Shown: positions 27,017 to 60,898 of the stretch, piece after piece
How positions within the stretch are numbered: the first letter of the stretch is position 1
How the letters are laid out: the number at the start of each line of letters is the position of its first letter
Source: Escherichia phage AV126
Sequence record: OR352956.1
DNA length: 64,000 nucleotides
Reading direction: 5' to 3' (one strand)
Position numbers and translations under genes: made by a program
Notes under the pieces: model-generated
The model's database searches: none
Told to the model about the DNA's origin: nothing
What the model saw: the letters and a program-made list of their open reading frames with translations, nothing else

Positions 27017-27033
27017 TCTTTTCTCCTCTCTTT

Positions 27034-48251: not shown

Positions 48252-48518
48252 TTATTTTTTGTTTTCTTGCCAGGATAGGACACCTAACCAAAAATGCATA
48301 TCGCCCCGCGCCGCTGGCGGGATCTTGCTTTCCCCGCCGCCACTGCAAGCCCATAAATAACCATCAGCAAACGGATCAAAATGTTCTATCTCTTCCACTT
48401 TATGATCGCCCAGGTTGAGAACGGTTTCAACCTTTAAGCCCGTTGCGCTTGCTACCTGGTGCACCGTGCCGCCTTGCCAGCCCAATGAGTGCATAAGGTG
48501 TAATGTAGTATTTGTCAT
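48252..48518 (-). CDS. hypothetical protein (uncertain)
   Basis: 88-aa ORF in GC-rich non-coding-looking stretch; weak RBS. Confidence 0.25.
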   Translation of the reverse strand: MTNTTLHLMHSLGWQGGTVHQVASATGLKVETVLNLGDHKVEEIEHFDPFADGYLWACSGGGESKIPPAARGDMHFWLGVLSWQENKK

Positions 48519-48626
48519 GGTATCGCCCTTTCTTTGATGTGCGCCCTGGTTGGCGCGGTAGAAAGATAATAGCCCTTTTCTTTATATATAGCAAGCAAAA
48601 AGAAAATAAAAAAGATTGAAAAATGG

Positions 48627-48683
48627 TTGACGTTAACCAGGCGGCGGCGTAGTATTCATCTTATAGGGCGGCAATGGTGCCGC
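48627..48683 (+). promoter_or_regulatory. promoter-hairpin cassette 1
   Basis: TTGACG, 17 nt, TAGTAT, then GGCGGCA-atgg-TGCCGC. Confidence 0.6.
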
Positions 48684-48704
48684 TCACTATTTGGAGTTAA
48701 GATC

Positions 48705-48902
48705 ATGGCAACATTGCACATTGTGGCGAAAGCTGGACAAATCAACGTAGTGGTAAACGGTTTTACTGAGTTCAGTCACCCCCAGGATGATCATGAAACG
48801 GTTTTATCTTTCATTGATTCCCTGTTAGAAATGGGAGTCATTACAGAAGACCAGCACGCTACAAAATGCAAGCGCGTTAATCAAATTGCAGGAATAGAAT
48901 AA
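48705..48902 (+). CDS. hypothetical small protein
   Basis: 65 aa from ATG after RBS GGAG; track ORF begins at the TTG of the -35 box. Confidence 0.55.
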   Translation: MATLHIVAKAGQINVVVNGFTEFSHPQDDHETVLSFIDSLLEMGVITEDQHATKCKRVNQIAGIE

Positions 48903-48908
48903 AAACTA

Positions 48909-48968
48909 TTGACAACAAACAACAACCTGATAAGATGTATCACATAGGGCGGGAAGTGGTTTCCCGCT
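48909..48968 (+). promoter_or_regulatory. promoter-hairpin cassette 2
   Basis: TTGACA, 16 nt, TAAGAT, then GGCGGGAA-gtggt-TTCCCGC. Confidence 0.65.
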
Positions 48969-48992
48969 CGTAACAGAAGAGAGATTATCATC

Positions 48993-49265
48993 ATGGCATC
49001 ATATAGCGCAACAATGATCGTAGCTGGCACAACTGGTAAACCTATGAGCGGTGGCGGATCTTTCGCTAATATCAATATTGACGGGCGTTTATCCCTGGAC
49101 GCAGCGATCGCTATTGCACGGGAAACATTTAAGAAAGAATGTAATTTCAACAAGCAAGATTATCTCGGTTTCGCTATTGAAAAAACCGCGCGCTTTGTTG
49201 ATTATAAAAGCCCGAAAATGGTTGATACTACACTAAAAGCGCAAGATGTAGCGTTTTTGCTTTAA
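48993..49265 (+). CDS. hypothetical small protein
   Basis: 90 aa; RBS AGAAGAGAG. Confidence 0.55.
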   Translation: MASYSATMIVAGTTGKPMSGGGSFANINIDGRLSLDAAIAIARETFKKECNFNKQDYLGFAIEKTARFVDYKSPKMVDTTLKAQDVAFLL

Positions 49266-49268
49266 GGC

Positions 49269-49323
49269 TTGACATTAACGAATAATTTGTTAATATGTTA
49301 CATAAAGCGGGAATAGTTCCCGC
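49269..49323 (+). promoter_or_regulatory. promoter-hairpin cassette 3
   Basis: TTGACA, 16 nt, TAATAT, then GCGGGAA-tag-TTCCCGC. Confidence 0.65.
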
Positions 49324-49341
49324 TATTTGTAAGGTGGTAGA

Positions 49342-49599
49342 ATGTTTTACATCAAATTAAAAGGTCACGTGATCGCGTTCAAAGATAACGCTTTTTACAG
49401 ATTAGCAAAATATGCGTTAATACATCCCCACTATGTTTATATAAGGGGGCGTGATGAAATAAATATCTTTGATCAAACAACATGCGAGAACATCGAGATC
49501 CGCAAGGTTGGCGTACGTGATTATCGTACATCTTTCTACCCTTGCAAGGATTCAGCAAGTCTTTTTAAAGTATGCCAATTGTTGAAAAAAGGTGGTTAA
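49342..49599 (+). CDS. hypothetical small protein
   Basis: 85 aa; RBS AAGGTGG. Confidence 0.55.
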   Translation: MFYIKLKGHVIAFKDNAFYRLAKYALIHPHYVYIRGRDEINIFDQTTCENIEIRKVGVRDYRTSFYPCKDSASLFKVCQLLKKGG

Positions 49600-49600
49600 T

Positions 49601-50158
49601 ATGGGCCGCGAATATGTGATCCAGTCTTGGGTAAAACATGAAGCAGATGATCCGCGCATCATTCCCGATCATCTTATCGATGAATCCACGGGATATAGCG
49701 GTGAGCAAATAGGTAACAGATTAGCACGTAGTAACGGCAACGTAAAAGCGCGTTATGTGCGCCCTGGCTGGCTGGCAAATGGTAACGCTGATTTATCCAG
49801 TGCGGAAGATGCAAGCGACGGCGCGAAAGATAATCCTTTGTACAAAATTGATCCGGCTTTTCGTGTCCTGGATGAATACCCCAGCAAGATAGCGGCGCTT
49901 GATGAAGCATTGGAAAGTAAGCGCATCACCTGGACCGCTTACAACATGGCAAAAAACGTACTTGATGGTAAATTGATTCAAGCTGAAAGAAAATTAGCCA
50001 AAATTGCAGCCATAGCCCAGGAGGAAGACGAGGAGACAACGGAAGAGGAAGAGTACGAAGAGATCCCGCCGTTGTTGTGTATTGATGCTTTTCCTGATTA
50101 TCAGCCGACAGAGGAAGAAAAAAGGATCGCACTAGAAAACTTTGAAAATAGTCTTTGA
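49601..50158 (+). CDS. hypothetical protein with acidic C-terminal region
   Basis: Start re-set to MGREYVIQ after RBS AAAGGTGG; EEDEETTEEEEYEE. Confidence 0.5.
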   Translation: MGREYVIQSWVKHEADDPRIIPDHLIDESTGYSGEQIGNRLARSNGNVKARYVRPGWLANGNADLSSAEDASDGAKDNPLYKIDPAFRVLDEYPSKIAALDEALESKRITWTAYNMAKNVLDGKLIQAERKLAKIAAIAQEEDEETTEEEEYEEIPPLLCIDAFPDYQPTEEEKRIALENFENSL

Positions 50159-50211
50159 CATATCGCCGCCACTGGCATAATATTTACCACGTAGGGCGGC
50201 AATGGTGCCGC
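50155..50211 (+). promoter_or_regulatory. promoter-hairpin cassette 4
   Basis: TTGACA, 17 nt, TAATAT, then GGCGGCA-atgg-TGCCGC. Confidence 0.65.
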
Positions 50212-50240
50212 TCATAGTGAAATTATACAGGAGGTTTACA

Positions 50241-50336
50241 ATGATTAATAAAGAAAATAGCTTGACGGTTGGAACGATTAACGCTATCATTTTCGCCGTT
50301 CCATTTTGGGTTGTAGTAGCGGCTATTATTTTCTAA
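50241..50336 (+). CDS. small hydrophobic peptide
   Basis: 31-aa ORF not in track; RBS AGGAGG. Confidence 0.4.
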   Translation: MINKENSLTVGTINAIIFAVPFWVVVAAIIF

Positions 50337-50345
50337 AAAATATTC

Positions 50346-50406
50346 TTGACAACGTTTTTTAATCTGATAAGATGTATCACATAGGGCGGCGGAATACTTC
50401 CCCGCC
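50346..50406 (+). promoter_or_regulatory. promoter-hairpin cassette 5
   Basis: TTGACA, 16 nt, TAAGAT, then GGCGGCGGAA-tac-TTCCCCGCC (imperfect). Confidence 0.6.
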
Positions 50407-50427
50407 AAAACAAAAAAGGGTAACACA

Positions 50428-50790
50428 ATGAGCAAGCAAATCAATACTATCATGTTTAATCTGGTATCTTTCCGCGATGATATGAAAAATTTACCACGTG
50501 AAACGGTTGATATTCATGTTTCAGCTTATCGCGCCCTTATTGATATGTTACCGCTAAAACGTGATCAACATGCCGCTAATATGATGCTTAATGCTATGCT
50601 TAAAAAGATGATTCAAACGGATCTTACTCTGGCATATGAGTATCAAGGGCGCTTATATGCTACTTACAACAAAGCGGTACCTGGTCTGGGAAGTACCGAA
50701 GAGTTGCACGGCTTAAACCTGGATCAGAACACTTGGGATAGTATGCGCCGCGTTATGGTATGGGCCGAAAGCGGTAAAATTTACGAATAA
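50428..50790 (+). CDS. hypothetical protein
   Basis: 120-aa ORF. Confidence 0.55.
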   Translation: MSKQINTIMFNLVSFRDDMKNLPRETVDIHVSAYRALIDMLPLKRDQHAANMMLNAMLKKMIQTDLTLAYEYQGRLYATYNKAVPGLGSTEELHGLNLDQNTWDSMRRVMVWAESGKIYE

Positions 50791-50796
50791 AAACGG

Positions 50797-50856
50797 TTGA
50801 CACTGTTTAAAATGCTGGTATAGTTTATCACATAGGGCGGGAAGTGGTTTCCCGCC
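50797..50856 (+). promoter_or_regulatory. promoter-hairpin cassette 6
   Basis: TTGACA, 16 nt, TATAGT, then GGCGGGAA-gtggt-TTCCCGCC. Confidence 0.65.
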
Positions 50857-50878
50857 AACAATGAAAAAGGTTATCATC

Positions 50879-51244
50879 ATGGCTATTAATATTAATGTTT
50901 CCGCTTATGCTACCCTGGCTAACACGGCTAAAATTGAATTATCCAGCATTGAGGCGGTGCATATTAGCGCCCGTCGCTGGTTTCAACAGTCCTACGGTAA
51001 CACGTATTTTTCTTTAATGGTTGACGTTGAGATCGGCGGTAAACTGATCGAGGTGGTTAACGTTCCGTTTCAATATGGCTATGGTGATCATTTTGATACC
51101 GTCGCCCTGGAAGAATTTAGCAAGGTTATCAACCTTGAGGGCAAGGAATTTTCACGCGGCGCGTATCTTTCCCGTTTTTGCCGTGACAATGGGATCACTG
51201 TATACAGTCATGCAAGCGATGTTAAACGTAAAAAAGATCTATAA
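50879..51244 (+). CDS. hypothetical protein
   Basis: Start re-set to MAININVSAY by analogy with sibling cassettes. Confidence 0.5.
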   Translation: MAININVSAYATLANTAKIELSSIEAVHISARRWFQQSYGNTYFSLMVDVEIGGKLIEVVNVPFQYGYGDHFDTVALEEFSKVINLEGKEFSRGAYLSRFCRDNGITVYSHASDVKRKKDL

Positions 51245-51250
51245 AAAGCA

Positions 51251-51309
51251 TTGACAGCACGAATAAAAAGAGTAAACTGTATTACATAGAGAGCGGGAAC
51301 ACTTCCCGC
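51251..51309 (+). promoter_or_regulatory. promoter-hairpin cassette 7
   Basis: TTGACA, 16 nt, TAAACT, then GCGGGAA-cac-TTCCCGC. Confidence 0.65.
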
Positions 51310-51333
51310 CTCACTGAAAAAGAGAGAAAAATC

Positions 51334-51573
51334 ATGGCTAAATCTAAAATGTACAACGGTCACAAAAACAAAACTCATTGGAATGTAAGCCTGTGGATTA
51401 ATAACGATGAGGGATTGTATCGGTTTGCATTGGGATTGATCAATGAGTGCGGTAATAAAGATCAGGCGGCTGATTTAATGTGCTACCGTTTGAAACAGGA
51501 TGGAATCACTACAACGCCAGACGGCTTTAAGTATAGTAAAACTGCAATCCGCGCCGCTATGGTTGGAATGTAA
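51334..51573 (+). CDS. hypothetical small protein
   Basis: 79 aa; RBS AAAGAGAGA. Confidence 0.55.
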   Translation: MAKSKMYNGHKNKTHWNVSLWINNDEGLYRFALGLINECGNKDQAADLMCYRLKQDGITTTPDGFKYSKTAIRAAMVGM

Positions 51574-51582
51574 TAAAAACAG

Positions 51583-51642
51583 TTGACAACGTTTAAAATT
51601 AGTGTAAGATGTATCACATAGGGCGGGAAGTGGTTTCCCGCC
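51583..51642 (+). promoter_or_regulatory. promoter-hairpin cassette 8
   Basis: TTGACA, 16 nt, TAAGAT, then GGCGGGAA-gtggt-TTCCCGCC. Confidence 0.65.
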
Positions 51643-51664
51643 AACAACAGAGAGATTAAAGATT

Positions 51665-51892
51665 ATGGCTATCAATATTGTTCGTGTATCCGGCACCGTT
51701 GGCAGTTCCCAGGTTGTAGCAGTTGTAACAAACAAAAAGATTAATGATGTATGTGAGATCTTGAATAAGTGGGCTATTGCTAATTTTGGGGAATATGCAA
51801 GCGTTGAGTACATCGAATCCTACCAGGTGCCGACCATCAGCCTAACCGATCTCAACGTTGATCGCCTGTTATGCCTGGATGAATTAATCTGA
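51665..51892 (+). CDS. hypothetical small protein
   Basis: 75 aa; N-terminus MAINIV resembles 50879 gene. Confidence 0.55.
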   Translation: MAINIVRVSGTVGSSQVVAVVTNKKINDVCEILNKWAIANFGEYASVEYIESYQVPTISLTDLNVDRLLCLDELI

Positions 51893-51901
51893 AAAAGATT
51901 G

Positions 51902-51957
51902 TTGACACGGGAAAGAAAAAGAGTAAACTGTATTACGTAGGGCGGCAATAGTGCCGC
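51902..51957 (+). promoter_or_regulatory. promoter-hairpin cassette 9
   Basis: TTGACA, 16 nt, TAAACT, then GGCGGCA-ata-GTGCCGC. Confidence 0.65.
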
Positions 51958-51982
51958 TCACAACAGAAGAGAGATTATCACG

Positions 51983-52198
51983 ATGGCTAATATCCGTACA
52001 CTGTTAAAAAATGCAAGTCAAGTTTTATTTTCAGATGACGAGTATTTCAACAAAGACATTACAGGCGTGAAAAATTTAAAAGACGTGAAGGATGTTATCG
52101 GTATCCGTGGATCTTTACGTAAAGGTGATATATACGGTAACAAGGTGCAATATAAACTGTCAAAAGATTATGATTTTACTTTGACAATTATTTCATAA
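51983..52198 (+). CDS. hypothetical small protein
   Basis: 71-aa ORF. Confidence 0.55.
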   Translation: MANIRTLLKNASQVLFSDDEYFNKDITGVKNLKDVKDVIGIRGSLRKGDIYGNKVQYKLSKDYDFTLTIIS

Positions 52199-52204
52199 AA
52201 CCGC

Positions 52205-52266
52205 TTGCAATCTTAATAAAATAAAGTAAACTGTATTACATCAAGGCGGCGGAATGGTCCACCGCC
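52205..52266 (+). promoter_or_regulatory. promoter-hairpin cassette 10
   Basis: TTGCAA, 16 nt, TAAACT, then GGCGGCGGA-atgg-TCCACCGCC. Confidence 0.6.
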
Positions 52267-52290
52267 TAACAAAGAGAAGAGGAAAATATT

Positions 52291-52458
52291 ATGATCACTT
52301 TCGCTACCCGTGAAGCCGCTCGCAACGTTGCCCGTAAAGTTAACGCCGCCAACCTGGGCGCTACACTTAAAGCCCCGGTAAAAGATGCATCAGGCGCGTG
52401 GATCTTCCCTGGTCTGCGTCACGCTGATAAGCTAGGCACTTTAAGCCTTAAAAAATAA
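52291..52458 (+). CDS. hypothetical small basic protein
   Basis: 55-aa ORF not in track; RBS AGAGGA. Confidence 0.45.
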   Translation: MITFATREAARNVARKVNAANLGATLKAPVKDASGAWIFPGLRHADKLGTLSLKK

Positions 52459-52461
52459 TCG

Positions 52462-52500
52462 TTGACTTTTCGTTATAGCGCCTTATAATGGGCGCTATAG
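52462..52500 (+). promoter_or_regulatory. promoter with palindrome over the -10 box
   Basis: TTGACT, 16 nt, TATAAT lying in the loop of ATAGCGCC-N8-GGCGCTAT. Confidence 0.55.
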
Positions 52501-52532
52501 AGAAGAGAAACCACTACTAACAAGGAAACATC

Positions 52533-52754
52533 ATGATCACTTTCGCTATTGTCGCCGTTGTCGCTGGTCAGGTTTACGTAAACGAGACATTTACTACAGA
52601 AGACAAGGCCGCAGGAGATATAACCGCCGTTTACAACGAGTGCAAGGCAGTAGAAAGGATGTTAGCGCCTTGTATGCTAATGAGTGAACGCCAGGACGGG
52701 ATAACAGTATTTACTAACATTGAAACAGGGTACCAAATGGTAGTAACAAAATAA
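52533..52754 (+). CDS. hypothetical small protein
   Basis: 73-aa ORF. Confidence 0.55.
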   Translation: MITFAIVAVVAGQVYVNETFTTEDKAAGDITAVYNECKAVERMLAPCMLMSERQDGITVFTNIETGYQMVVTK

Positions 52755-52757
52755 AGC

Positions 52758-52814
52758 TTGACACGGATTTAATTTTCAGTAAACTGTTACACGTAGGGCG
52801 GGAATAGTTCCCGC
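52758..52814 (+). promoter_or_regulatory. promoter-hairpin cassette 11
   Basis: TTGACA, 16 nt, TAAACT, then GCGGGAA-tag-TTCCCGC. Confidence 0.65.
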
Positions 52815-52833
52815 TCAAAAAGAGAGAAAGACT

Positions 52834-53187
52834 ATGAAAGCACAAAATGCAATTAAAGAGTACATCCTTGCCGCTATCGATTTTAATGATTACGGTATTA
52901 CAACCGAAAAAGAGAAGATCGCGGAATTGATGCGCCGTTTTAATTCCGAGTACTGGTACCCTGATAACCAATCACGTTTTAATTATAGTATTGTTAAAGC
53001 ACTTGCATCATGGTTACAAGGTTTGCCATCAGATATCAATATCGCTTTCGAATATTGGGAAATTGATCGCCTGTTAACATCCTGGGGATACATTAAAGAG
53101 AATAGCCGCGATGATAAAATCCAACGAGAAAGGGAAAATTATTGGCTTTATATTGCAGGCGTGATCCTTGCTTGCTCTTATGAATGA
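52834..53187 (+). CDS. hypothetical protein
   Basis: 117-aa ORF. Confidence 0.55.
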   Translation: MKAQNAIKEYILAAIDFNDYGITTEKEKIAELMRRFNSEYWYPDNQSRFNYSIVKALASWLQGLPSDINIAFEYWEIDRLLTSWGYIKENSRDDKIQRERENYWLYIAGVILACSYE

Positions 53188-53193
53188 TAAACC

Positions 53194-53246
53194 TTGACAA
53201 TTTTACAAAACAGTTTAAATTAACAATATAGCGGCAATGGTGCCGC
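53194..53246 (+). promoter_or_regulatory. promoter-hairpin cassette 12
   Basis: TTGACA, 16 nt, TAAATT, then GCGGCA-atgg-TGCCGC. Confidence 0.6.
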
Positions 53247-53266
53247 TCATATGAAGAGGAAACAAA

Positions 53267-53413
53267 ATGAATACATCTAATCGCGCAGAAAAAATTCAAT
53301 CTTCCAAGATCCGCAAGGCCTGGAACGAGGAAGTGATCCGCAAAGGCGACAAGCGTAATAAAACAAAGCGCGGGAAGAGTGACAAATATAATTGGATGGA
53401 TTTAGAGGATTAA
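53267..53413 (+). CDS. small basic protein
   Basis: 48-aa Lys/Arg-rich ORF not in track; RBS GAGGAAAC. Confidence 0.4.
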   Translation: MNTSNRAEKIQSSKIRKAWNEEVIRKGDKRNKTKRGKSDKYNWMDLED

Positions 53414-53419
53414 CATAAC

Positions 53420-53447
53420 AAGGGCGCACCAAGCGCCCTTTCTTTTT
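53420..53447 (+). terminator. rho-independent terminator
   Basis: AAGGGCGC-acca-AGCGCCCTT then TCTTTTT. Confidence 0.7.
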
Positions 53448-53468
53448 ACATGTAGAGGATAAACAAAA

Positions 53469-53654
53469 ATGACTTTAAACGAGCTTAAAACAGCGTACAG
53501 CGCAACATTAAAAATAGCCGTGCGTTACCGTGACGAATACGGTTTTATTGCGCAGGGCGTGATCCTGGGCTTTTCTGACGATGGTTTGATCTATGTTGAT
53601 GCACATTATAACAAGGTTAAACCGGAAAACGTTATTAGCATAAAATATCTTTAA
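53469..53654 (+). CDS. hypothetical small protein
   Basis: 61 aa; RBS GAGGA. Confidence 0.5.
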   Translation: MTLNELKTAYSATLKIAVRYRDEYGFIAQGVILGFSDDGLIYVDAHYNKVKPENVISIKYL

Positions 53655-53660
53655 AAACGG

Positions 53661-53720
53661 TTGACACCATAACCGGACCTGTTAAACTGTATTACATCAG
53701 GCGGGGAATAGTTCCCCACC
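53661..53720 (+). promoter_or_regulatory. promoter-hairpin cassette 13
   Basis: TTGACA, 16 nt, TAAACT, then GGCGGGGAA-tag-TTCCCCACC. Confidence 0.6.
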
Positions 53721-53739
53721 ATACAAAAAGGTAAATATT

Positions 53740-53946
53740 ATGATCACCGCAAAACAAGAAAAAATCATTATCGACGTTGCAGCCGTTGCCGCTATCGCTA
53801 TTATTGGATCTTATTATGATACCCGTTTCCCGTCGGCTATGCATGAGGTCGCCGCCGTTGCATCAGTTGGCGTACTGTTTTACGTTGGTAAACGCTATTT
53901 ATCACCAATGATTAACAAGCTGACACCGTGGAAAAATAAAGGTTGA
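53740..53946 (+). CDS. small membrane protein
   Basis: 68 aa, hydrophobic core AAVAAIAIIG. Confidence 0.5.
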   Translation: MITAKQEKIIIDVAAVAAIAIIGSYYDTRFPSAMHEVAAVASVGVLFYVGKRYLSPMINKLTPWKNKG

Positions 53947-53997
53947 TCCTGTTTTACATTGTGTTATAGTTATCGTGTAGGGCGGCAATGGTGCCGC
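53943..53997 (+). promoter_or_regulatory. promoter-hairpin cassette 14
   Basis: TTGATC, 16 nt, TATAGT, then GGCGGCA-atgg-TGCCGC. Confidence 0.6.
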
Positions 53998-54017
53998 GCC
54001 CCTTTGAGGATGCAATC

Positions 54018-54302
54018 ATGAGTAAAGCTAACACCGTGCTAATGTTTTCCCTGATTAATGATCTCGCTTACTTGTCCAACATGACGCAGGAGGGTAACAC
54101 ATTAACGGCAACATTCACCAATAAGCTTGACCGAGTGATCATCGTCTCACTGAAAACAGTTAGTAAAGGCTTTTACTCGTTAGCTTATCATTGTATCACT
54201 GACACCGACGAGACAAGCCAGGACTATAGCGCCCCTTTCCCTGAATCAATGGCACGGGAGATCATCGCCGCCGTTGTAAATGATGGTTTGTTTACTGCAT
54301 AA
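54018..54302 (+). CDS. hypothetical small protein
   Basis: Start re-set to MSKANTVL; track start is the ATG inside the hairpin loop. Confidence 0.5.
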   Translation: MSKANTVLMFSLINDLAYLSNMTQEGNTLTATFTNKLDRVIIVSLKTVSKGFYSLAYHCITDTDETSQDYSAPFPESMAREIIAAVVNDGLFTA

Positions 54303-54319
54303 ATAATTTAGAAAAAGGC

Positions 54320-54376
54320 TTGCAATCATTTTGAGATAGTGTATATTTAATTCATAGGGCGGCGGGAATAGTTCCC
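54320..54376 (+). promoter_or_regulatory. promoter-hairpin cassette 15
   Basis: TTGCAA, 16 nt, TATATT, then GGGCGGCGGGAA-tag-TTCCC. Confidence 0.55.
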
Positions 54377-54399
54377 AAAGCAAACGAGAGGATTACACG

Positions 54400-54519
54400 A
54401 TGAGCAAGTACACAGTAGAATACACGGTAGAGAATCCGGCAGTATCCGAAGGTAAAAAGATGACATTTGCCATCAGTATAATCGCTTTCGTTGTCACTAT
54501 CTTATCAATCATCTTATAA
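54400..54519 (+). CDS. small membrane peptide
   Basis: 39-aa ORF not in track; RBS GAGAGGA; C-terminal hydrophobic helix. Confidence 0.4.
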   Translation: MSKYTVEYTVENPAVSEGKKMTFAISIIAFVVTILSIIL

Positions 54520-54529
54520 GGTACACACC

Positions 54530-54691
54530 ATGAAAATAGCAGACATTATCAAAGAGATCGCCCTTGCCACTGGTATCGAGATCGAGGAAGTGATCGCGCT
54601 CAATCTTACAGAAAACGATTTGCGCAACTATGAAGCGGAAAGCGTGAAAGCAAGTGGCGCGGTCCTGGCATATAATCCGGCTAACAAATAG
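54530..54691 (+). CDS. hypothetical small protein
   Basis: Start re-set to MKIADIIKE; 53 aa. Confidence 0.4.
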   Translation: MKIADIIKEIALATGIEIEEVIALNLTENDLRNYEAESVKASGAVLAYNPANK

Positions 54692-54692
54692 T

Positions 54693-54750
54693 TTGACAAG
54701 CTGAATCAACCTGATAAGATGTATGACATAGGGGCGACAAGCGCCCCGCC
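54693..54750 (+). promoter_or_regulatory. promoter-hairpin cassette 16
   Basis: TTGACA, 16 nt, TAAGAT, then GGGGCG-acaa-GCGCCCC. Confidence 0.65.
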
Positions 54751-54771
54751 TAACAGAAGAGAGAAAAAATC

Positions 54772-55050
54772 ATGACCATCACCAAATTATCTACCGAAGA
54801 GATCACCAACATTCTGACTACTAATCTGCAAGATTGGAAGCGTGAAGCCGATTTGCAAGCGGTTTGCAAGCTGAATGTAGAGTTAACAGAAAGCGACATT
54901 GACGCCATTATTAACCCTGATTTCTATGATGCTATTCATGATGATTCTATTATCCTTGAAACACTATTAGATAATACTTGGATCAATCCCGATTTGGCAG
55001 CTTATGACCGTAGCGCCTTTATCACTATCCACAATATCTATAACCGTTAA
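54772..55050 (+). CDS. hypothetical small protein
   Basis: 92-aa ORF. Confidence 0.55.
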   Translation: MTITKLSTEEITNILTTNLQDWKREADLQAVCKLNVELTESDIDAIINPDFYDAIHDDSIILETLLDNTWINPDLAAYDRSAFITIHNIYNR

Positions 55051-55060
55051 GGGGCGTAGC

Positions 55061-55171
55061 ATGAATCCGAGAGATATGCAATCATGGAAAGGGTGCGACG
55101 ATCTAAGCGCCTTGCGCAATAAGTCAAGCCGTAACCTTAGACGGTTGGAAGCAAAGAAAAAGAAAAAATAG
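55061..55171 (+). CDS. small basic peptide (uncertain)
   Basis: 36-aa ORF not in track; Lys-rich tail. Confidence 0.3.
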   Translation: MNPRDMQSWKGCDDLSALRNKSSRNLRRLEAKKKKK

Positions 55172-55172
55172 T

Positions 55173-55228
55173 TTGACAAGTCGGCTTAGTCTGGTAATAT
55201 GTATCTTGTAGGGCGGCAATGGTGCCGC
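55173..55228 (+). promoter_or_regulatory. promoter-hairpin cassette 17
   Basis: TTGACA, 16 nt, TAATAT, then GGCGGCA-atgg-TGCCGC. Confidence 0.65.
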
Positions 55229-55249
55229 TCACAAGAAGAGAGAAAAATC

Positions 55250-55534
55250 ATGGAAATCACAAAAAGCCTAACTAATTATGCAGCACGTCGCGGATTATGT
55301 TTAACCGTTGAAAACTTAGGGAAAGAAGACTTTTTGTGTTTTTGGGAGCTTGAAAATGATTGCGAGTGGATGTTTTCCTATTCTATCTGCGAAGATCAAA
55401 ACGGTTGTTTGTTAACCTGGCGCGGTAATATCTATTTACCGGAAGAAATTAAAGAAGAGTTACCAGGTACAATCATGACAGAGAGACAGCTTAAGGAAGT
55501 GATCAATTTTGTAGGGCAAAACATTAAAAAATAA
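55250..55534 (+). CDS. hypothetical small protein
   Basis: Start re-set to MEITKSL; 94 aa, Cys/Trp-rich. Confidence 0.5.
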   Translation: MEITKSLTNYAARRGLCLTVENLGKEDFLCFWELENDCEWMFSYSICEDQNGCLLTWRGNIYLPEEIKEELPGTIMTERQLKEVINFVGQNIKK

Positions 55535-55535
55535 T

Positions 55536-55597
55536 TTGACAGCACGCAAACAACGTAGTAAAGTTTACCACATAGGGCGGCGGAATGGTCCACCGCT
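55536..55597 (+). promoter_or_regulatory. promoter-hairpin cassette 18
   Basis: TTGACA, 17 nt, TAAAGT, then GGCGGCGGA-atgg-TCCACCGC. Confidence 0.6.
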
Positions 55598-55619
55598 CAC
55601 AACAGAAGAGAAACAAATC

Positions 55620-55790
55620 ATGATCCCGACTATGTTTTATGTATCGCGCAAAGGTCACAATATTTTTTGGTCTGAAGATTTAAATGAAGCCATGACGTTT
55701 GCCCGTGATCGTGTTGCTATCGGTGGCGTTAACATCACCGTAACCGATGAAAATGGCATTGAATACTATAACGGCGACGATGAAGAGTAA
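55620..55790 (+). CDS. hypothetical small protein
   Basis: Start re-set to MIPTMFYVSRKG; 56 aa. Confidence 0.5.
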   Translation: MIPTMFYVSRKGHNIFWSEDLNEAMTFARDRVAIGGVNITVTDENGIEYYNGDDEE

Positions 55791-55856
55791 TTAATAAGGC
55801 GGGGAATACTTCCCGCCACGCAGTGAATTTTCCGTTTGGGAAGTAAAAAATAAATC

Positions 55857-55918
55857 TTGACGATAATTTGTTATCTGATAGAATGTATTTCGTAGGGCGG
55901 GGCAATAAGGCAACGCCC
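55857..55918 (+). promoter_or_regulatory. promoter-hairpin cassette 19
   Basis: TTGACG, 16 nt, TAGAAT, then imperfect GC hairpin GGGCGGGGCAATAAGGCAACGCCC. Confidence 0.5.
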
Positions 55919-55936
55919 ATTAATGAGGGTAGAATC

Positions 55937-56041
55937 ATGTTAGAGAAAATTTTCACGGTTGCAGTAGTTGGCCTGGCGTTATCGGTTGGAGTGGTTGCAA
56001 CTATGGCTAATATGATCCTATCTTCCCACGGTATCGGCTAA
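55937..56041 (+). CDS. small membrane peptide
   Basis: 34-aa ORF not in track; RBS GAGGG; hydrophobic. Confidence 0.4.
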   Translation: MLEKIFTVAVVGLALSVGVVATMANMILSSHGIG

Positions 56042-56051
56042 GGTGAAACAA

Positions 56052-56267
56052 ATGATCACGAATAAGACAGGTAAAACGGAATTTTTACGCGGCTTGCAAG
56101 TTGGTAAACCTGAGATCTGGCATTGTACTAAATCCGCGCATAATGAAATGAAAGATTTTACCGCTACTTTACAACGTGTTAAAATATCTATCACACAGAA
56201 AAAAGCCTTGTTAGTAGTAGAAAACGAGATCCCGCAAACTATTATTATTGTCGAGCGTACAGCATGA
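56052..56267 (+). CDS. hypothetical small protein
   Basis: Start re-set to ATG after RBS AAGGTG. Confidence 0.5.
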   Translation: MITNKTGKTEFLRGLQVGKPEIWHCTKSAHNEMKDFTATLQRVKISITQKKALLVVENEIPQTIIIVERTA

Positions 56268-56650
56268 AAACAGAAATCATTATTGAAATCATCAACGGTT
56301 ATAAAGAAGCCTTTATTTTTGCTGAATCAGCAAGGGATCATGAAGGTAATTTTATTGAAAACTTAGACGATTATGATTTTTCTCCTAGCGCGGACGAACG
56401 GATCGCCCAGGATGTAACAGCCTTTATTAATGCTAATCTTGCCGCTATCTCTGAGGCAATGAGCGACGGCGCAACAGCCAACCAGATCGGGAATGATTTA
56501 CATTTTACCCGTAACGGTCACGGCGTAGGCTTTTGGGATCGCCCTGAAATATACACCACTAACACGGCGAACCGCCTAACCAATGCAGCTAAGTTTATGC
56601 CGAACGTGTCGGCTTACATTGGTGAAGATAATTTGATTTATATTGAATAA
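56264..56650 (+). CDS. hypothetical protein
   Basis: 128 aa; ATGA overlap with upstream gene. Confidence 0.55.
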   Translation: MKTEIIIEIINGYKEAFIFAESARDHEGNFIENLDDYDFSPSADERIAQDVTAFINANLAAISEAMSDGATANQIGNDLHFTRNGHGVGFWDRPEIYTTNTANRLTNAAKFMPNVSAYIGEDNLIYIE

Positions 56651-56656
56651 AAAGTA

Positions 56657-56713
56657 TTGACACAGATCGCCAGTGTGCTAATATTTACCACGTAGGGCGG
56701 CAATGGTGCCGCC
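56657..56713 (+). promoter_or_regulatory. promoter-hairpin cassette 20
   Basis: TTGACA, 16 nt, TAATAT, then GGCGGCA-atgg-TGCCGCC. Confidence 0.65.
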
Positions 56714-56731
56714 GATAATGAGGAAAGTAAA

Positions 56732-57031
56732 ATGGAAACTATCGCTATTGTTACCGTAGAAAAACTGGTTGTTGGTGATGTATTCGCGTTAATGGTGCCT
56801 AACAGCAGCAAGCTGGGCGCTTATGAAGTAATGGATCATAAAAATGAATCATTTGGCGACGGTTGCACAATGGCGGTAAAATCTTTAAAGGATGGAATCA
56901 TCCGCCAGGCTAACTGGCACAAAGGGAATCAAGTCGGTTTAATATCAGCTAATTTCTTGCCAGAAGAGCAAACGTTAGACCAACTATCAGGCGGTAAGAC
57001 GTTAGCCGAACTACTGGAAACAGCGATCTAA
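56732..57031 (+). CDS. hypothetical protein
   Basis: 99-aa ORF; RBS GAGGAAAG. Confidence 0.55.
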   Translation: METIAIVTVEKLVVGDVFALMVPNSSKLGAYEVMDHKNESFGDGCTMAVKSLKDGIIRQANWHKGNQVGLISANFLPEEQTLDQLSGGKTLAELLETAI

Positions 57032-57075
57032 TCAACAAAGGGGCGGCAACGCCCCACATCAGAAAGGAAAAGATT

Positions 57076-57312
57076 ATGAGTATTGCAACAGTATTAAACG
57101 CCGTTAAAACCGCTGAATCATCCGGCTTGCATGTTGAGCTTATAGATCAACCAGGTGGCGATCTCCTTGTCCAGGTTTACCCGCCGAAAGTAGGGGATGA
57201 TTATTATTGGGCTTATTCTGATACGTTCGAACAAGTAGACACGAAAGCGATCACGGCTTTTATTTTAAAAGCTATTGAAGAAAATAACTTTCATCATAAC
57301 ATCAATCAATAA
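57076..57312 (+). CDS. hypothetical small protein
   Basis: 78 aa; preceded by promoterless hairpin GGGGCG-gcaa-CGCCCC. Confidence 0.55.
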   Translation: MSIATVLNAVKTAESSGLHVELIDQPGGDLLVQVYPPKVGDDYYWAYSDTFEQVDTKAITAFILKAIEENNFHHNINQ

Positions 57313-57366
57313 ACCATAAGCGGGGCGGTAACGCCCCATTAAACGCAATAGGAAGAGGATAGACGC

Positions 57367-57657
57367 ATGAAAAAGATGATCGCAGTAGTTGCCCTGGTTG
57401 TTGGTATTAACGCGCCTGTACTGGCTAATGAGTTGCCAGAATCCATCACGCTAACCGATATCAACGCAATAAACCGGATCGGCGTTAATTATCGCCTATG
57501 CCTTGCCGCTAAAACTTTCCAGGACGGCACGACAGAATACCACGGATTCGAGGGTATCCGCTGCGGTGAGCTTGCACGCGACCTTAAGGAAGATCCAGAC
57601 CTTGAGGCCATACCGATGACCGTAAACGGTAAAGCTTACGTAAACCGCCAACAATGA
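57367..57657 (+). CDS. secreted small protein
   Basis: 96 aa; signal peptide MKKMIAVVALVVGINAPVLA. Confidence 0.55.
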   Translation: MKKMIAVVALVVGINAPVLANELPESITLTDINAINRIGVNYRLCLAAKTFQDGTTEYHGFEGIRCGELARDLKEDPDLEAIPMTVNGKAYVNRQQ

Positions 57658-57788
57658 GAAAGATAATCATCACAATGGGGATCGTAGTAGCAACGCTGGC
57701 GCTTATCCCCTTCATGGTTGAACATGTGCTGATCAGTGTTGTCCTTGTAGTCAGTGACCTATTGGAAACGGTTGGCAACTGGTTTTAA
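57654..57788 (+). CDS. small membrane peptide
   Basis: 44-aa ORF not in track; ATGA overlap; hydrophobic. Confidence 0.4.
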   Translation: MRKIIITMGIVVATLALIPFMVEHVLISVVLVVSDLLETVGNWF

Positions 57789-57797
57789 GATAAATAA

Positions 57798-57825
57798 ACA
57801 GGGCTTGTTTTTGTCCTGTTTTTTG
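57798..57825 (+). terminator. rho-independent terminator
   Basis: ACAGGGC-ttgtttttgt-CCTGT then TTTTTTG. Confidence 0.65.
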
Positions 57826-57963
57826 TTATACTTATTGAACGGGCGGCACTTGGGAGCAGGTGAAGATAATCACCGGAAGATCCCGCTATATATCGATAGC
57901 TAATACCTATCAAACAACAAAACATCAAAGAGATAAACTATCAAATCTTTACAATCCTACCTA

Positions 57964-58024
57964 TTGACACCGGATCACGCTTACATTATTATTTATCACG
58001 TAGGGCGAGCAATACAGCAAGCCC
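57964..58024 (+). promoter_or_regulatory. promoter-hairpin cassette 21
   Basis: TTGACA, 17 nt, TATTAT, then GGGCGAGCAA-tac-AGCAAGCCC. Confidence 0.55.
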
Positions 58025-58041
58025 ACAAAGAGGAAAAGAAG

Positions 58042-58410
58042 ATGAGCAAATCAGCAATTAAAGCAGTTGAAAAAGCGCAAGAAGTGATCGCAACGTCAAC
58101 CACTGGCGCAAAGGTTAATCTCGTTGGTTATCTGACAGATGAAGCTATCCGTAAAAATTGGCGTAATGCTGATTTACTGGCTTGCTTATTGATTAATAGT
58201 GTCGCTAATGCTTTCCAGTGTGAAACAGCCGAGAGCCTGGAGGAAAACTTGTTTGATAATATGGATCAAGCCATTGAAACCTATATACAATCAAACCTGG
58301 ATAGCTGGAACAGTAAGACATGGCCTGACAGCTTACGCGATACAACTGATCAACTGATCCGCCTTGCCCTGATGGTTGAACGCGATAACGTTCACAACCG
58401 CACAAAGTAA
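58042..58410 (+). CDS. hypothetical protein
   Basis: Start re-set to MSKSAIKAV after RBS AGAGGAAAAG. Confidence 0.55.
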   Translation: MSKSAIKAVEKAQEVIATSTTGAKVNLVGYLTDEAIRKNWRNADLLACLLINSVANAFQCETAESLEENLFDNMDQAIETYIQSNLDSWNSKTWPDSLRDTTDQLIRLALMVERDNVHNRTK

Positions 58411-58468
58411 GATTATACAAGGGGCGCACTAAGCGCCCTTTAACGTAAAGAAATGTAAATAATGCGCT

Positions 58469-58505
58469 ATCCCCTATTGACAGGGGATCGGCGTTATATT
58501 ATATT
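58469..58505 (+). promoter_or_regulatory. promoter with palindrome over the -35 box
   Basis: ATCCCCT-attgac-AGGGGAT enclosing TTGACA; 17 nt; TATATT; no downstream GC hairpin. Confidence 0.5.
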
Positions 58506-58550
58506 TAACTCACTGGCAGCAAACAACGAAACGAAACAAAGGACAACACC

Positions 58551-58970
58551 ATGAACATTAAATCAAATAATCCAGCTTACTCCTTCGATAACGCTTTTTG
58601 TCACGGTAGCGCCGCCAAAGGCTTCGAAATCGATGGTAAATTGGTTATCGTGAACGTTGACGGGGAAGAGGTTGCAGTGTATCCGGTAAACGATGTTAAA
58701 AGCCGTTTACAATGCCGCATGGATGTTACCGCATATCAGCTTGATCCGGTCCGTGTAGTTGCCCTGGTATTAGAGGAAGAGATCAAAGCAATGCATCACA
58801 GTAATAAGTTTATTGGTGACGCGCAGGATAATATGAACGTTTGCCGCCATAAAGTTAATGAAGCATTGAAAGAATATGGTTTTAAGGATCTGATGATCAA
58901 ACGTGATGAAAAATTCCGCTTTCGTAATGACCTGGCAAACCGGATCTACTCAATCTATGAAGCGTTATAA
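58551..58970 (+). CDS. hypothetical protein
   Basis: 139-aa ORF. Confidence 0.55.
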   Translation: MNIKSNNPAYSFDNAFCHGSAAKGFEIDGKLVIVNVDGEEVAVYPVNDVKSRLQCRMDVTAYQLDPVRVVALVLEEEIKAMHHSNKFIGDAQDNMNVCRHKVNEALKEYGFKDLMIKRDEKFRFRNDLANRIYSIYEAL

Positions 58971-58984
58971 TCGACAACAAAACA

Positions 58985-59012
58985 AGGGGCGCACCAAGCG
59001 CCCTTTCTTTTT
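58985..59012 (+). terminator. rho-independent terminator closing the island
   Basis: AAGGGGCGC-acca-AGCGCCCTT then TCTTTTTG. Confidence 0.75.
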
Positions 59013-59217
59013 GCCTGAACAATGTTGATAGCTTTCGCCTATGAAAAACCGACACAGAACAAAACTGAATAAATCGCGGTATCGAGCTAATCAACCATCA
59101 AACGAATAACCATACATCCCAGGGCAACAGGCTGTTAGAGAGCTATTTAGAGCGGTTAAAATCGATCTACAACCAACAACAAACCATCAAAAACACCCTT
59201 TTACCTCCTTTCTAGTG

Positions 59218-59237
59218 CAATGATAACCATTATCATC
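59218..59237. promoter_or_regulatory. Fur-box-like motif
   Basis: CAATGATAACCATTATCATC; 14 of 15 core positions match ATGATAATCATTATC. Confidence 0.4.
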
Positions 59238-59989
59238 TACCCATGATTATCTATGCAATATAAGCGCATAATTATAATGTTGATAATAGTTCGCAACAAC
59301 TAACCAACAAACAACATAAAACAATAAGCAAACTAATCATAATCAAAGGAATAATAGCAAGATGATTGATAACGACAAACAATCAAACCATGATGAATAC
59401 TAAGCAAGATAACGATAACACGACAAAACAACCAACTAACGAACAATAACAAACGAAACCATTAAAAGATCAACTATTAGCAAAATAGTGTCTATTGCCA
59501 TAATAGTGACTGAATGAAATCATTACAAAACGAATCATTCCAAGGATCATCATTAGCACGCTACGCCGGACACGTAGCGAGCTAATAATAAGCCAACTAC
59601 ACCCCAACAATCATAACCATCGGTGACGGTTATTTCTTGTTACTGCGTAGCTTGCAATAATTGCAAGCGTAATGACGCTTACACTTATTGCGCTGGCTTA
59701 TTATTAGCATTATATGTAATTACCAAGATCATAACATTAGCGCAATAACAATAATCATTACAATAATTACATAAGGAAACAATTAGCATAGCAATAATTA
59801 TGGGGGCAATGGGAGGATGATTATCATCATTCCGATACATTGCACACTATGCACATAATAAGATAAAAAGCAATAATCTTGGGGGCGAAATGTTACCGCC
59901 ACAGGCGGGAATGTTGAGCATCTTCTCTTAAACGTAAATAAAATCAGAAAATTCTTGATTTATTTTAGTTTTTATGTTAATAAACGTTT

Positions 59990-60010
59990 AAATAATAATC
60001 ATTCTCATAT
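59990..60010. promoter_or_regulatory. Fur-box-like motif (weaker)
   Basis: AAATAATAATCATTCTCATAT shares ATAATCATTCTCAT with 47973 site. Confidence 0.3.
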
Positions 60011-60167
60011 AAATAATAGTCTGCTTGTCATGAGCGGGATTAGTTGACATTGTTCCGTCATATGATGAAGTTGCCAAGCCATTGATAAATAAGTGTTTGT
60101 GTGATTTATAATCAAGTGGCCCACCTTGTCGCTACGTTGGCATGAGCCTTGCATAAGTCATTGAATA

Positions 60168-60190
60168 CGAATGATAATTATTCTCATTCG
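60168..60190. promoter_or_regulatory. Fur-box-like motif
   Basis: GAATGATAATTATTCTCATTCGC. Confidence 0.35.
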
Positions 60191-60529
60191 CATGATATTT
60201 GGGAATTGTCGCTGCGTGGACCTGACGGCCCGAAAATTCGCGTTAAGCACTTCTTACGTATGCGCCATGATTTTTGCCATATCATATTGATTCTATTAGA
60301 TATTCTTGCCATGATTGCCATGAAACAGGGTGTCCCGAAATAATCTCTCCCCGTAGATATTTTGGGTTACTTTTTATACAAGAGTGGGGTGTCAAAAATA
60401 ATCGGTATATATGGGATAATTGATAGGAATCCCCTATGATAATTCGATTGTAATTCCCTAAGATTGATCGTATGATGTTGGTGATTGATGATTGCCATGA
60501 AAGATGGCTAACGATGAGAGGAGATTATC

Positions 60530-60898
60530 ATGCAAGAGAGTAAAAATATTCCGTTGAGCAGTGCAGCATTGATTCAATTCTACAAAGCATGGATGGCTGA
60601 TCACTACAGCATGGATCGCACGGAGAATGGACTGTGTTTATGTATTCATCATTTTGTGCGATCTCATCTTATGAAAGATGTGGAGAATCCCCGATGGTAT
60701 GCCGACATAATAGATAGCTTGTTGTTTGAGATGCGTGCTCAGTTCAAAGACGCTGGCATTGATACGTGCGCACCCTTCAACACTGGATATGCGGATTACT
60801 TGATTGAAGTGGAAGATAAAATGTGTCACCTGAATCCACTTCGCATTCAGTGGGTGAAAGATCGCATTGAAGATGCAAATAATGCTTGCATTGAATAA
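60530..60898 (+). CDS. hypothetical protein
   Basis: 122 aa; RBS GAGAGGAG. Confidence 0.55.
   Translation: MQESKNIPLSSAALIQFYKAWMADHYSMDRTENGLCLCIHHFVRSHLMKDVENPRWYADIIDSLLFEMRAQFKDAGIDTCAPFNTGYADYLIEVEDKMCHLNPLRIQWVKDRIEDANNACIE

Follow-up and report, generated by a model that had tools for sequence, protein, structure and literature searches.

What does a stable hairpin do when it stands behind a strong promoter and ahead of a very small gene, and why should a phage carry this arrangement some twenty times over within 10.4 kb? The question is raised by positions 48627-59012 of a 64,000-nucleotide (nt) stretch of Escherichia phage AV126 (OR352956.1; 'the window' below is this whole stretch, and coordinates are its own, on the plus strand unless stated otherwise), which a preliminary description, made from the letters alone, had read as an island of about 32 tiny genes behind repeated cassettes of a σ70 promoter and a 5' hairpin. 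We find that the island is built of ~22 copies of one modular expression cassette. As far as sequences can show it, the cassettes are joints for the deletion, insertion and replacement of genes and for the swapping of hairpins, by homologous recombination between copies. In our best reading, which comes from comparison with known phage elements, they are a positional variant of the promoter-early stem-loop (PeSL) cassettes of T4-type phages. We lean, with slightly better than even confidence, towards modular early-gene expression cassettes that serve as recombination joints and whose hairpin acts as a 5'-proximal structure of the mRNA.

Anatomy of the repeated cassette

The window belongs to Phapecoctavirus (phAPEC8-like myoviruses), and its island is 94-96% identical to those of Mt1B1_P17, tuntematon, ESCO13 and others (258 records); in the relatives' records all genes beneath the island are 'hypothetical' and no regulatory elements are annotated. 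We counted 32 intact plus-strand open reading frames (ORFs) of 31-185 amino acids (aa), spanning 48705-58970 with a coding fraction of 0.77, in agreement with the number and sizes given before. The island is also GC-richer than the rest of the window, as had been suggested, if only slightly (41.8% G+C vs 39.0%; no other 10.4-kb stretch of the window exceeds 40.3%).

Direct counting found 23 σ70-type promoters in the island, each with an A-rich tract in the upstream 20 nt and at least 9-11 of the 12 consensus positions. The -35 hexamer is TTGACA in 18 cases, the others being TTGACG (twice), TTGACT, TTGCAA (twice) and TTGATC; the spacer is 16 nt in 18 promoters and 17 nt in five, and the -10 hexamer reads TAnnnT in all except one, often preceded by TGn. 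The promoter class described previously (23 copies, TTGACA, 16-17 nt, TAnnnT, A-rich upstream) is therefore present as described, with small exceptions in the hexamers. A GC hairpin begins 8-14 nt past the -10 hexamer at 21 of the 23 promoters, so that hairpins do stand behind the promoters as claimed, although their number had been put at 19. The deviating cases are the promoter at 54320, whose hairpin is degenerate, that at 52462, whose hairpin straddles its -10, and that at 58477, which has none. The exact motif TAGGGCGG occurs 14 times, every time inside the island and on the plus strand, while the remaining hairpins begin with the variants TAAAGCGG, TAGAGAGCGG, TCAAGGCGG, TATAGCGG, TCAGGCGG, TAGGGGCG and TAGGGCGA; all four arm pairs quoted in the preliminary description were found. 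The composite pattern TTGACA-N16/17-TANNNT-N8-14-GCGG has 15 matches against 0.05 expected from shuffles, and GC-rich hairpins reach 2.0 per kb in the island versus 0.32 per kb elsewhere, a sixfold density. The repeated cassettes are thus real and non-random and, because the counts of genes, promoters and hairpins and the composition agree, the earlier picture is correct apart from small differences in number.

The cassette unit takes up the ~85 nt between one gene's stop codon and the ATG that follows, and its own sequence sets in a few bases past that stop. Its parts follow in a set order: an A-rich, UP-like tract, the -35, usually a 16-nt spacer, the -10, 6-7 nt that end in a conserved pyrimidine-purine (Y-R) step (C-A or C-G in 17 of 21 cassettes, 7-8 nt after the -10, then U-A-G), a hairpin of 6-10 bp with a G-rich 5' arm, a loop of 3-7 nt and a C-rich 3' arm, and a leader of 17-30 nt, A/G-rich and unstructured, with a weak GAG-type Shine-Dalgarno sequence (SD) before the ATG. 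A Y-R step 7-8 nt past the -10 is where E. coli RNA polymerase is expected to start, and applied here the rule predicts a transcript with a 5' tail of 0-4 nt ahead of the hairpin; promoter geometry places the hairpin at the extreme 5' end of the predicted transcript, where it had been supposed to lie. In predicted folds of the 5' untranslated region (5'UTR) the hairpin runs from nt 3-5 to ~25 with -11 to -17 kcal/mol, the z-scores are -2.2 to -4.6 in 18 of 20 cases, and neither the SD nor the AUG is paired. In transcripts with G at +1 and CUCAC as the 3' flank, the predicted 5' end is fully paired.

A complete Phapecoctavirus genome, filed as 'Campylobacter phage B15', has 18 hairpin cassettes in its island and one elsewhere, and its other strong σ70-like promoters lead straight to a ribosome site. 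Directly behind a hairpin cassette, the ribosome site lies in an A/G-rich leader and is of a weak GAG/GGA type; non-island genes as well as translationally coupled island genes mostly have AGGAG or GGAGG, according to the ribosome-binding-site annotation of the phi92 authors. The island thus stands apart from the rest of the genome by its promoter spacing, its type of -10, its 5' structure and its ribosome sites. As to the record itself, the sequences of 'Campylobacter phage B15' and 'A12a' (MG065650, MG065666; both UNVERIFIED) and the taxonomy lines in these records assign them to Phapecoctavirus and Vequintavirus, respectively, and the Campylobacter host label is doubtful.

Gene exchange at the cassettes and pairing of the stems

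Eight of ~258 related genomes were compared in detail, and the ends of blastn alignments between the island and five Phapecoctavirus relatives were taken as breakpoints. Eleven of the 19 breakpoint clusters fall within cassettes, which cover 22% of positions (binomial P = 9e-4), and two more coincide with an orphan hairpin (55798-55817) and a terminator. The relatives differ by deletions, replacements and hairpin swaps, and two crossovers in phage nieznany could be resolved to the base. At the first, nieznany follows cassette 55173 up to GTAGGGCGGCAATGGTGCCGC and then continues as cassette 56657, the five intervening genes being absent; at the second it follows cassette 51902 up to GTAAACTGTATTAC and continues as cassette 52205, without ORF 51983-52198. 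The gene at 48993 stands behind five hairpin types across eight genomes. At cassette 50797, which is a one-gene indel junction relative to tuntematon, Mt1B1_P17, nieznany and ESCO13, the promoter is common to the relatives and the hairpin and downstream gene differ. The orphan hairpin at 55798-55817 is likewise an indel junction, here relative to tuntematon, Mt1B1_P17 and ESCO13, which have an additional small gene at this place. Because phi92 has a full promoter-hairpin cassette before the gene where the window has the hairpin at 57040 alone, all three orphan hairpins, at 55798, 57040 and 57322, have the look of scars left by recombination events. The preliminary description had suggested that the island may be horizontally assembled; breakpoints, crossovers and hairpin exchange bear this out as a mosaic between relatives, and the gain, loss and replacement of genes inside cassettes, which it did not contain, is the strongest evidence at the level of sequence. 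Small-gene content therefore differs from one relative to the next, and every gene arrives with expression signals of its own. Chi sites cannot explain the recombination, because the window has zero copies of GCTGGTGG, and Chi-driven exchange was rejected.

These observations would also suit a hairpin without any RNA function, namely a palindrome in a repeated DNA cassette that promotes or hitchhikes on recombination, a DNA-level 'linker' as proposed for PeSLs. The crossovers are resolved inside the hairpin and adjacent cassette sequence, the same hairpin is present up to seven times in the island, whole hairpin types are swapped between cassettes, TAGGGCGG is more conserved than pairing requires, and the asymmetry between G.U and A.C appositions, which would mark a functional RNA strand, is not significant. 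On the other hand, a linker should be homogenised, yet the window's genome has at least 12 complementary hairpin types and other phage groups add more; the G-rich arm always comes 5' in the sense of transcription and at a fixed distance from the -10; and the hairpin is kept in place in homologous cassettes whose genes are ~70% identical in protein. We regard the linker as an unlikely explanation, if the most serious of the alternatives.

Whether structure is what is conserved was approached through the stems. From 134 cassette instances in the window and seven relatives we obtained 33 distinct hairpins, and pairs were counted in a core-anchored, N-padded alignment; a plain MAFFT alignment of 22 cassettes was rejected for pair counts, its 3' arms being out of register, and a padded MAFFT alignment of 47 hairpins was dropped, its rows being shifted, and the same statistic computed directly. 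Among the 33 hairpins 91.1% of cells pair, compared with 82.2% after shuffling of the 3' letters (0/500), the covariation score is 0.237 versus 0.133 shuffled (0/500), seven of 12 stem pairs have changes on both sides, and sliding the partner by 1-3 columns lowers pairing to 38-65%. With 14 hairpins added from Vequintavirus, Asteriusvirus and Certrevirus, the 47 hairpins of four phage groups, anchored on the loop, are 96.8% paired against 70.0% when shuffled (0/1000). All these statistics ignore phylogeny.

Comparisons between orthologues are cleaner evidence than the pooled alignments. In the cassette at 27092, the phi92 orthologue has GCGGAGGA UUG UCCUCCGC, which amounts to two compensatory pair changes, and the C.A mismatches of two window hairpin types are U-A pairs in phi92 and SP27 (in the case of cassette 10, in phi92). 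Orthologues of cassette 51251 vary in the loop only (CAC, UAG, UAC), and the SP27 homologues of ORF 51334 (71% aa identity) have a hairpin at the same position with different arms. Among 89 variant orthologous cassettes, 12 have no stable hairpin; in ten of these the whole cassette including the promoter was lost or replaced, and the other two are the decayed 54320; where an orthologous promoter is retained, a stable hairpin is retained with it, 54320 excepted. Swapping arms between hairpins raised the folding energy from -12.75 (native) to -9.17 kcal/mol, a modest contrast because the 5' arms are all purine-rich and the 3' arms all pyrimidine-rich, so that swapped arms pair fairly well. The stems had been said to vary while staying complementary, and the aligned cassettes contain the compensatory changes that this implies. 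Taken together, the pooled and orthologous comparisons support conservation of complementarity rather than of one fixed sequence.

Position and possible role of the hairpin

The closest precedent, overlooked by the preliminary description, is the PeSL cassette described for RB49/phi1, PST/T4 and nt-1/KVP40 (Arbiol et al. 2010, PMC2839356; Comeau et al. 2014, PMC4122927). Both elements consist of an AT-rich tract, a strong σ70-like early promoter (23 here), a stable G-run/C-run stem-loop (21 here), an SD and a start codon; both occur in many copies in a hyperplastic region of small ORFans; and in both, indel and replacement junctions between close relatives fall in the elements, where the crossover can lie in the stem-loop. 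They differ in that PeSLs have their stem-loop upstream of the promoter, between -35 and -10, or across the -10 hexamer, and that it was interpreted and tested as a terminator, whereas the stem-loops of our 21 cassettes lie downstream of the -10, inside the predicted transcript, and have no T run. Only 52462, with its repeat over the -10, has the position found in RB49 (PMC2839356). The lineage also differs, being Stephanstirmvirinae (and also Vequintavirinae and Asteriusvirus) rather than T4-like. Excised mini-circles, each with a gene and a chimeric cassette, are a further trait of PeSLs. We do not class the cassettes as PeSLs, because the position of the stem-loop, its implied function and the phage lineage are all different.

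The precedent nevertheless suggests that the stem-loop could be a terminator or attenuator that stops transcription from upstream and insulates each cassette. PeSL stem-loops (G-run, loop, C-run) equalled rrnB T1 in how strongly they cut read-through in a reporter (PMC2839356), no space is left for another terminator between a stop codon and the next -35, and 10.4 kb hold just three or four T-run terminators. However, no cassette hairpin is followed by a T run on the plus strand, the next 8 nt being A-rich, and a terminator scan flags none of them; an efficient terminator behind its own promoter would, moreover, abort its own transcripts at ~+25. In the island the plus-strand scan flags only 53420, 57796 and 58984, and with A-rich flanks on the cassette hairpins we rejected their identity as intrinsic terminators. 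A terminator or attenuator is, in our judgment, very improbable.

A protein recognition site, either a DNA operator at +1 to +25 by which a phage product would shut off early promoters or an RNA tag, made up of UAGGGCGG and the stem, that a phage or host factor would read for processing, antitermination or timed decay, would explain why 14 of 21 cassettes contain the exact TAGGGCGG, which is met again in phi92 and CR9, why the element overlaps the start site, where repressors act, and why hairpin promoters are a class apart from the genome's other σ70 promoters. The arm distance, stem length and loop vary and the arms co-vary, however, which argues against a dyad-symmetric DNA site; several cassettes (GGGGCG, AGCGG and GCGGGG types) lack TAGGGCGG; there is neither a boxA-like partner nor a constant loop as in nut/boxB; and no candidate binding protein was identified. 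We consider such a site improbable, less so than termination. A nut/boxB antitermination site has a constant loop recognised by an N-like protein and a boxA partner; here the loops differ (AUGG, GUGGU, UAG, UAC, CAC, ACAAG) and no conserved boxA was seen, and this candidate was rejected. No Rfam family matches the cassette hairpins at E <= 1. In an N4-type promoter for virion RNA polymerase the hairpin itself is the promoter, upstream of the start and without σ70 hexamers, and we rejected it since each hairpin here lies behind a near-consensus σ70 promoter at a fixed distance. An RNase III site was rejected because the stems are too short.

Placed downstream of the predicted start site, the hairpin would be part of the mRNA, transcribed as nt +4/+5 to ~+25 of each cassette message. 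We think it most likely that it acts as RNA, for stability or insulation; its fixed place past the start site, the G-rich arm coming first, the variable arm spacing and the open ribosome site speak for a role as RNA. A 5'-proximal stem-loop would limit the 5'-end-dependent decay by RppH and RNase E, and it would shield the leader and ribosome site from interactions with any coding sequence placed behind, so that the outcome would be uniform, context-independent early expression. Stabilising 5' stem-loops of this kind, a class to which the T7 gene 10 leader also belongs, reportedly work, in the hands of Emory and colleagues, when they lie within about 2-4 nt of the end. The cassette hairpins resemble those of E. 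coli ompA and papA (Emory, Bouvet and Belasco 1992, cited in PMC3997798) in being simple hairpins a few nt from the 5' end (here a predicted one), in that structure matters over sequence, and in being followed by an accessible ribosome site; they differ in being repeated ~20 times within a mobile cassette and in their predicted tail, whose 3-4 nt reach the limit for protection against RppH and RNase E (PMC8833179). RppH is blocked by a stem-loop at the 5' terminus, and RNase E is slowed when the 5' end is base-paired (PMC8833179, PMC3997798); both enzymes require at least 2 unpaired nt and favour 3 or more, and a pyrimidine (U) at +2 is disfavoured by RppH (PMC8833179).

Several points weigh against the hairpin as an mRNA structure of modular cassettes. 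The start site is deduced from promoter geometry and the Y-R rule. The predicted unpaired tail is R-U-A, sometimes with an additional G, and at 3-4 nt it would leave at best partial protection from RppH and RNase E (PMC8833179). The covariation alignments were assembled from hairpins detected one sequence at a time and are therefore biased towards structure, and because hairpin types move between cassettes as whole units, the independent compensatory events may number perhaps 5-10. The wobble counts, 8 G.U versus 4 A.C, do not single out a functional strand significantly. The conservation of TAGGGCGG beyond the needs of pairing could reflect recent gene conversion or a sequence-specific reader. 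Lastly, cassette 54320 persists with a decayed hairpin and three hairpins persist without a promoter.

The island appears to be an early-gene region, judging from promoter type and genome position. Comparable modules for host takeover or early expression are the SPO1 terminal-redundancy module, the T4 hyperplastic regions and the T5 pre-early region. As in these, very small genes of unknown function are clustered, each or a few behind a strong promoter for host RNA polymerase, and the cluster adjoins a genome end: the counterpart genes in phi92 (Justusliebigvirus), gp225-gp248, stop ~1.1 kb short of the right direct terminal repeat. The single genes carry their own expression signals, as do the promoter-gene-terminator units known as lambdoid morons. 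We know of no conserved flanking sequence that mediates the movement of morons, whereas here exchange takes place in the conserved cassette itself.

This architecture also stands before small genes in a Vequintavirus, in Asteriusvirus SP27 and in Certrevirus CR9, and some small genes are common to the island and these groups, with 28-91% aa identity. In SP27, a 347-kb jumbo phage, about ten small genes at 6446-12287 stand behind near-identical TTGCAA-16-TATAAT promoters and 5' hairpins; they include two paralogues of window ORF 51334, and the SP27 hairpin GAGAGCGGGAACACUUCCCGCC is identical to that of the window at 51251 yet precedes an unrelated gene. A pattern scan of IMG/VR gave mostly single, presumably chance matches, and only contigs with multiple matches were examined further. 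Among high-GC cluster-B mycobacteriophages (Phaedrus, Imvubu and a further sequence, L091), ~10 copies of an analogous unit precede small genes, consisting of TTGACA-16-TATTGT, ~10-13 nt, the hairpin GGCGGGACGGACCCGCC and GGGAGAGGA-ATG; in Phaedrus the sites lie on the minus strand at 1335-9253 of the reverse complement, with a plus-strand site at 13728, and one mycobacteriophage copy, GCCGGG...CCCGGC, has a compensatory G/C swap. We found no description of the mycobacteriophage unit in the literature searched, nor any description of hairpin cassettes or any transcript mapping for phAPEC8-, phi92- or rV5-like phages, the rV5 paper giving promoters and terminators only.

A more far-reaching possibility, which we put forward as speculation and hold to be improbable, is that the transcribed hairpin labels immediate-early mRNAs as a class. 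The label would be recognised by a phage factor or by the machinery of decay or translation, and messages so marked would escape the mRNA turnover induced by infection, or would later be selectively exposed to it. At the same time the sequence would be a homology 'socket' for the exchange of early genes, ready for expression, between unrelated phage families, and this short 5' structure, its position kept in at least three coliphage lineages, would have been reinvented in mycobacteriophages.

The island from end to end, and its genes

Just left of the island lies a divergent minus-strand promoter (48519-48594; TTGCTA-17-TATTAT) with its own 5' hairpin (48541-48556, sense GCGCC AACCAG GGCGC), which serves ORF 48252-48518 on the minus strand and is kept in 6/6 relatives. 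Cassette 1 (48627-48704) has the promoter TTGACG-17-TAGTAT and a hairpin at 48666-48685 (GGGCGGCA AUGG UGCCGCUC), followed by leader, SD and ORF 48705-48902, and cassette 2 (48909-48992) has TTGACA-16-TAAGAT with a TGn-extended -10 and a hairpin at 48947-48969 before ORF 48993-49265. Cassette 3 (49269-49341; hairpin 49306-49324, AGCGGGAA UAG UUCCCGCU) serves two ORFs, 49342-49599 and 49601-50158, and cassette 4 (50155-50240; hairpin 50194-50213) serves ORF 50241-50336, of 31 aa. The hairpin of cassette 5 (50346-50427; hairpin 50385-50406, GGCGG C GGAA UAC UUCC C CGCC) has a C.C mismatch and precedes ORF 50428-50790; cassette 6 (50797-50878; hairpin 50836-50856) precedes ORF 50879-51244. Cassette 7 (51251-51333) has a hairpin core at 51293-51309, extended to GAG A GCGGGAA CAC UUCCCGC CUC, before ORF 51334-51573, and cassette 8 (51583-51664; hairpin 51622-51642) precedes ORF 51665-51892. 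The partners of the nieznany crossover within GTAAACTGTATTAC are, on the left, cassette 9 (51902-51982; hairpin 51940-51959; ORF 51983-52198) and, on the right, cassette 10 (52205-52290; TTGCAA-16-TAAACT; hairpin 52244-52267 with a C.A mismatch; ORF 52291-52458).

The promoter at 52462-52532 (TTGACT-16-TATAAT) has an 11-bp inverted repeat across its -10 (52473-52500) and no downstream hairpin, and is followed by ORF 52533-52754. Then come cassette 12 (52758-52833; hairpin 52796-52816; ORF 52834-53187) and cassette 13 (53194-53266; hairpin 53230-53247; ORF 53267-53413), the latter ORF being followed by a terminator-like hairpin with a T run (53420-53446). Cassette 14 (53661-53739) has a hairpin with a C.A mismatch at 53710-53730 before ORF 53740-53946; the C run of its 3' arm is CCC, CCCC or CCCCC in different phages, with stabilities of -12.5 to -9.3 kcal/mol, a variation that looks like homopolymer slippage. 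Cassette 15 (53943-54017; TTGATC-16-TATAGT; hairpin 53982-53997) serves ORF 54018-54302. In cassette 16 (54320-54399; TTGCAA-16-TATATT; ORFs 54400-54519 and 54530-54691) the degenerate hairpin (54364-54376) has just -7.8 kcal/mol and is weak in relatives too. Cassette 17 (54693-54771; hairpin 54731-54747, GGGGCG ACAAG CGCCCC) serves ORFs 54772-55050 and 55061-55171.

The nieznany crossover inside the hairpin joins cassette 18 on the left (55173-55249; hairpin 55211-55230; ORF 55250-55534) to cassette 21 on the right (56657-56731; hairpin 56696-56713; ORF 56732-57031). Between them lie cassette 19 (55536-55619; hairpin 55575-55598; ORF 55620-55790), the promoterless orphan hairpin GGCGGGGAAUACUUCCCGCC (55798-55817), and cassette 20 (55857-55936), whose hairpin at 55895-55918 has an outer stem GGGCG/CGCCC, an internal loop and a short inner stem, and which serves ORFs 55937-56041, 56052-56267 and 56264-56650. 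Two further orphan hairpins without promoters, GGGGCGGCAACGCCCC (57040-57055) and GGGGCGGUAACGCCCC (57322-57337), stand between ORFs, the second between 57076-57312 and 57367-57657. A terminator-like hairpin with a T run (57796-57825) follows ORF 57654-57788 and is an indel junction too. Cassette 22 (57964-58041; hairpin 58003-58024, GGGC GA GC AAUACA GC AA GCCC; ORF 58042-58410) coincides with a breakpoint cluster, the promoter without a hairpin (58477-58550; TTGACA-17-TATATT) serves ORF 58551-58970, and a last terminator-like hairpin with a T run (58984-59012) closes the island. The sole cassette outside it lies on the minus strand at 27017-27092 (TTGACA-16-TAAGAT; hairpin 27034-27052, GCGGGGAA UAG UUCCCCGC), ahead of a TerC-like gene, which the relatives' annotation calls a TerC-like integral membrane protein.

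PHROG families hold 30 of the 31 island proteins scanned, and 29 of these fall in families of unknown function; a 39-aa membrane protein of the island is in the category 'moron/host takeover'. The 10 largest island proteins have zero Pfam matches. Two orthologues of small island ORFs carry specific names, 'phosphoribosylpyrophosphate synthetase' for that of 51983-52198 in tuntematon (70 aa; 6628-6840) and 'TDP-4-keto-6-deoxy-D-glucose transaminase' for that of 53267-53413 in SKA64 (48 aa; 4932-5078), and given the size of the proteins both annotations look spurious. To the right of the island, 59013-60550 is a stretch of ~1.5 kb without ORFs, strongly A/C-rich on the plus strand and with short direct and inverted repeats. 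Because it partly resembles the phi92 sequence that precedes the right terminal repeat, the physical end of the genome probably lies in this stretch.

The early regions of large virulent phages, whose evolution and expression are poorly understood, hold most of the small unknown genes now being mined for host-takeover and anti-defence functions. The cassettes extend the idea behind PeSLs, that a regulatory cassette is also a recombination joint, beyond the T4-like phages to Stephanstirmvirinae, Vequintavirinae and Asteriusvirus, and a stem-loop carried on the mRNA predicts an effect of the 5' hairpin on stability or insulation, not on termination. They would mark gene boundaries and likely start sites in genomes without such annotation and supply E. 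coli expression work with a compact, natural promoter-5'UTR part, and they would explain differences in gene content among therapeutic phage candidates.

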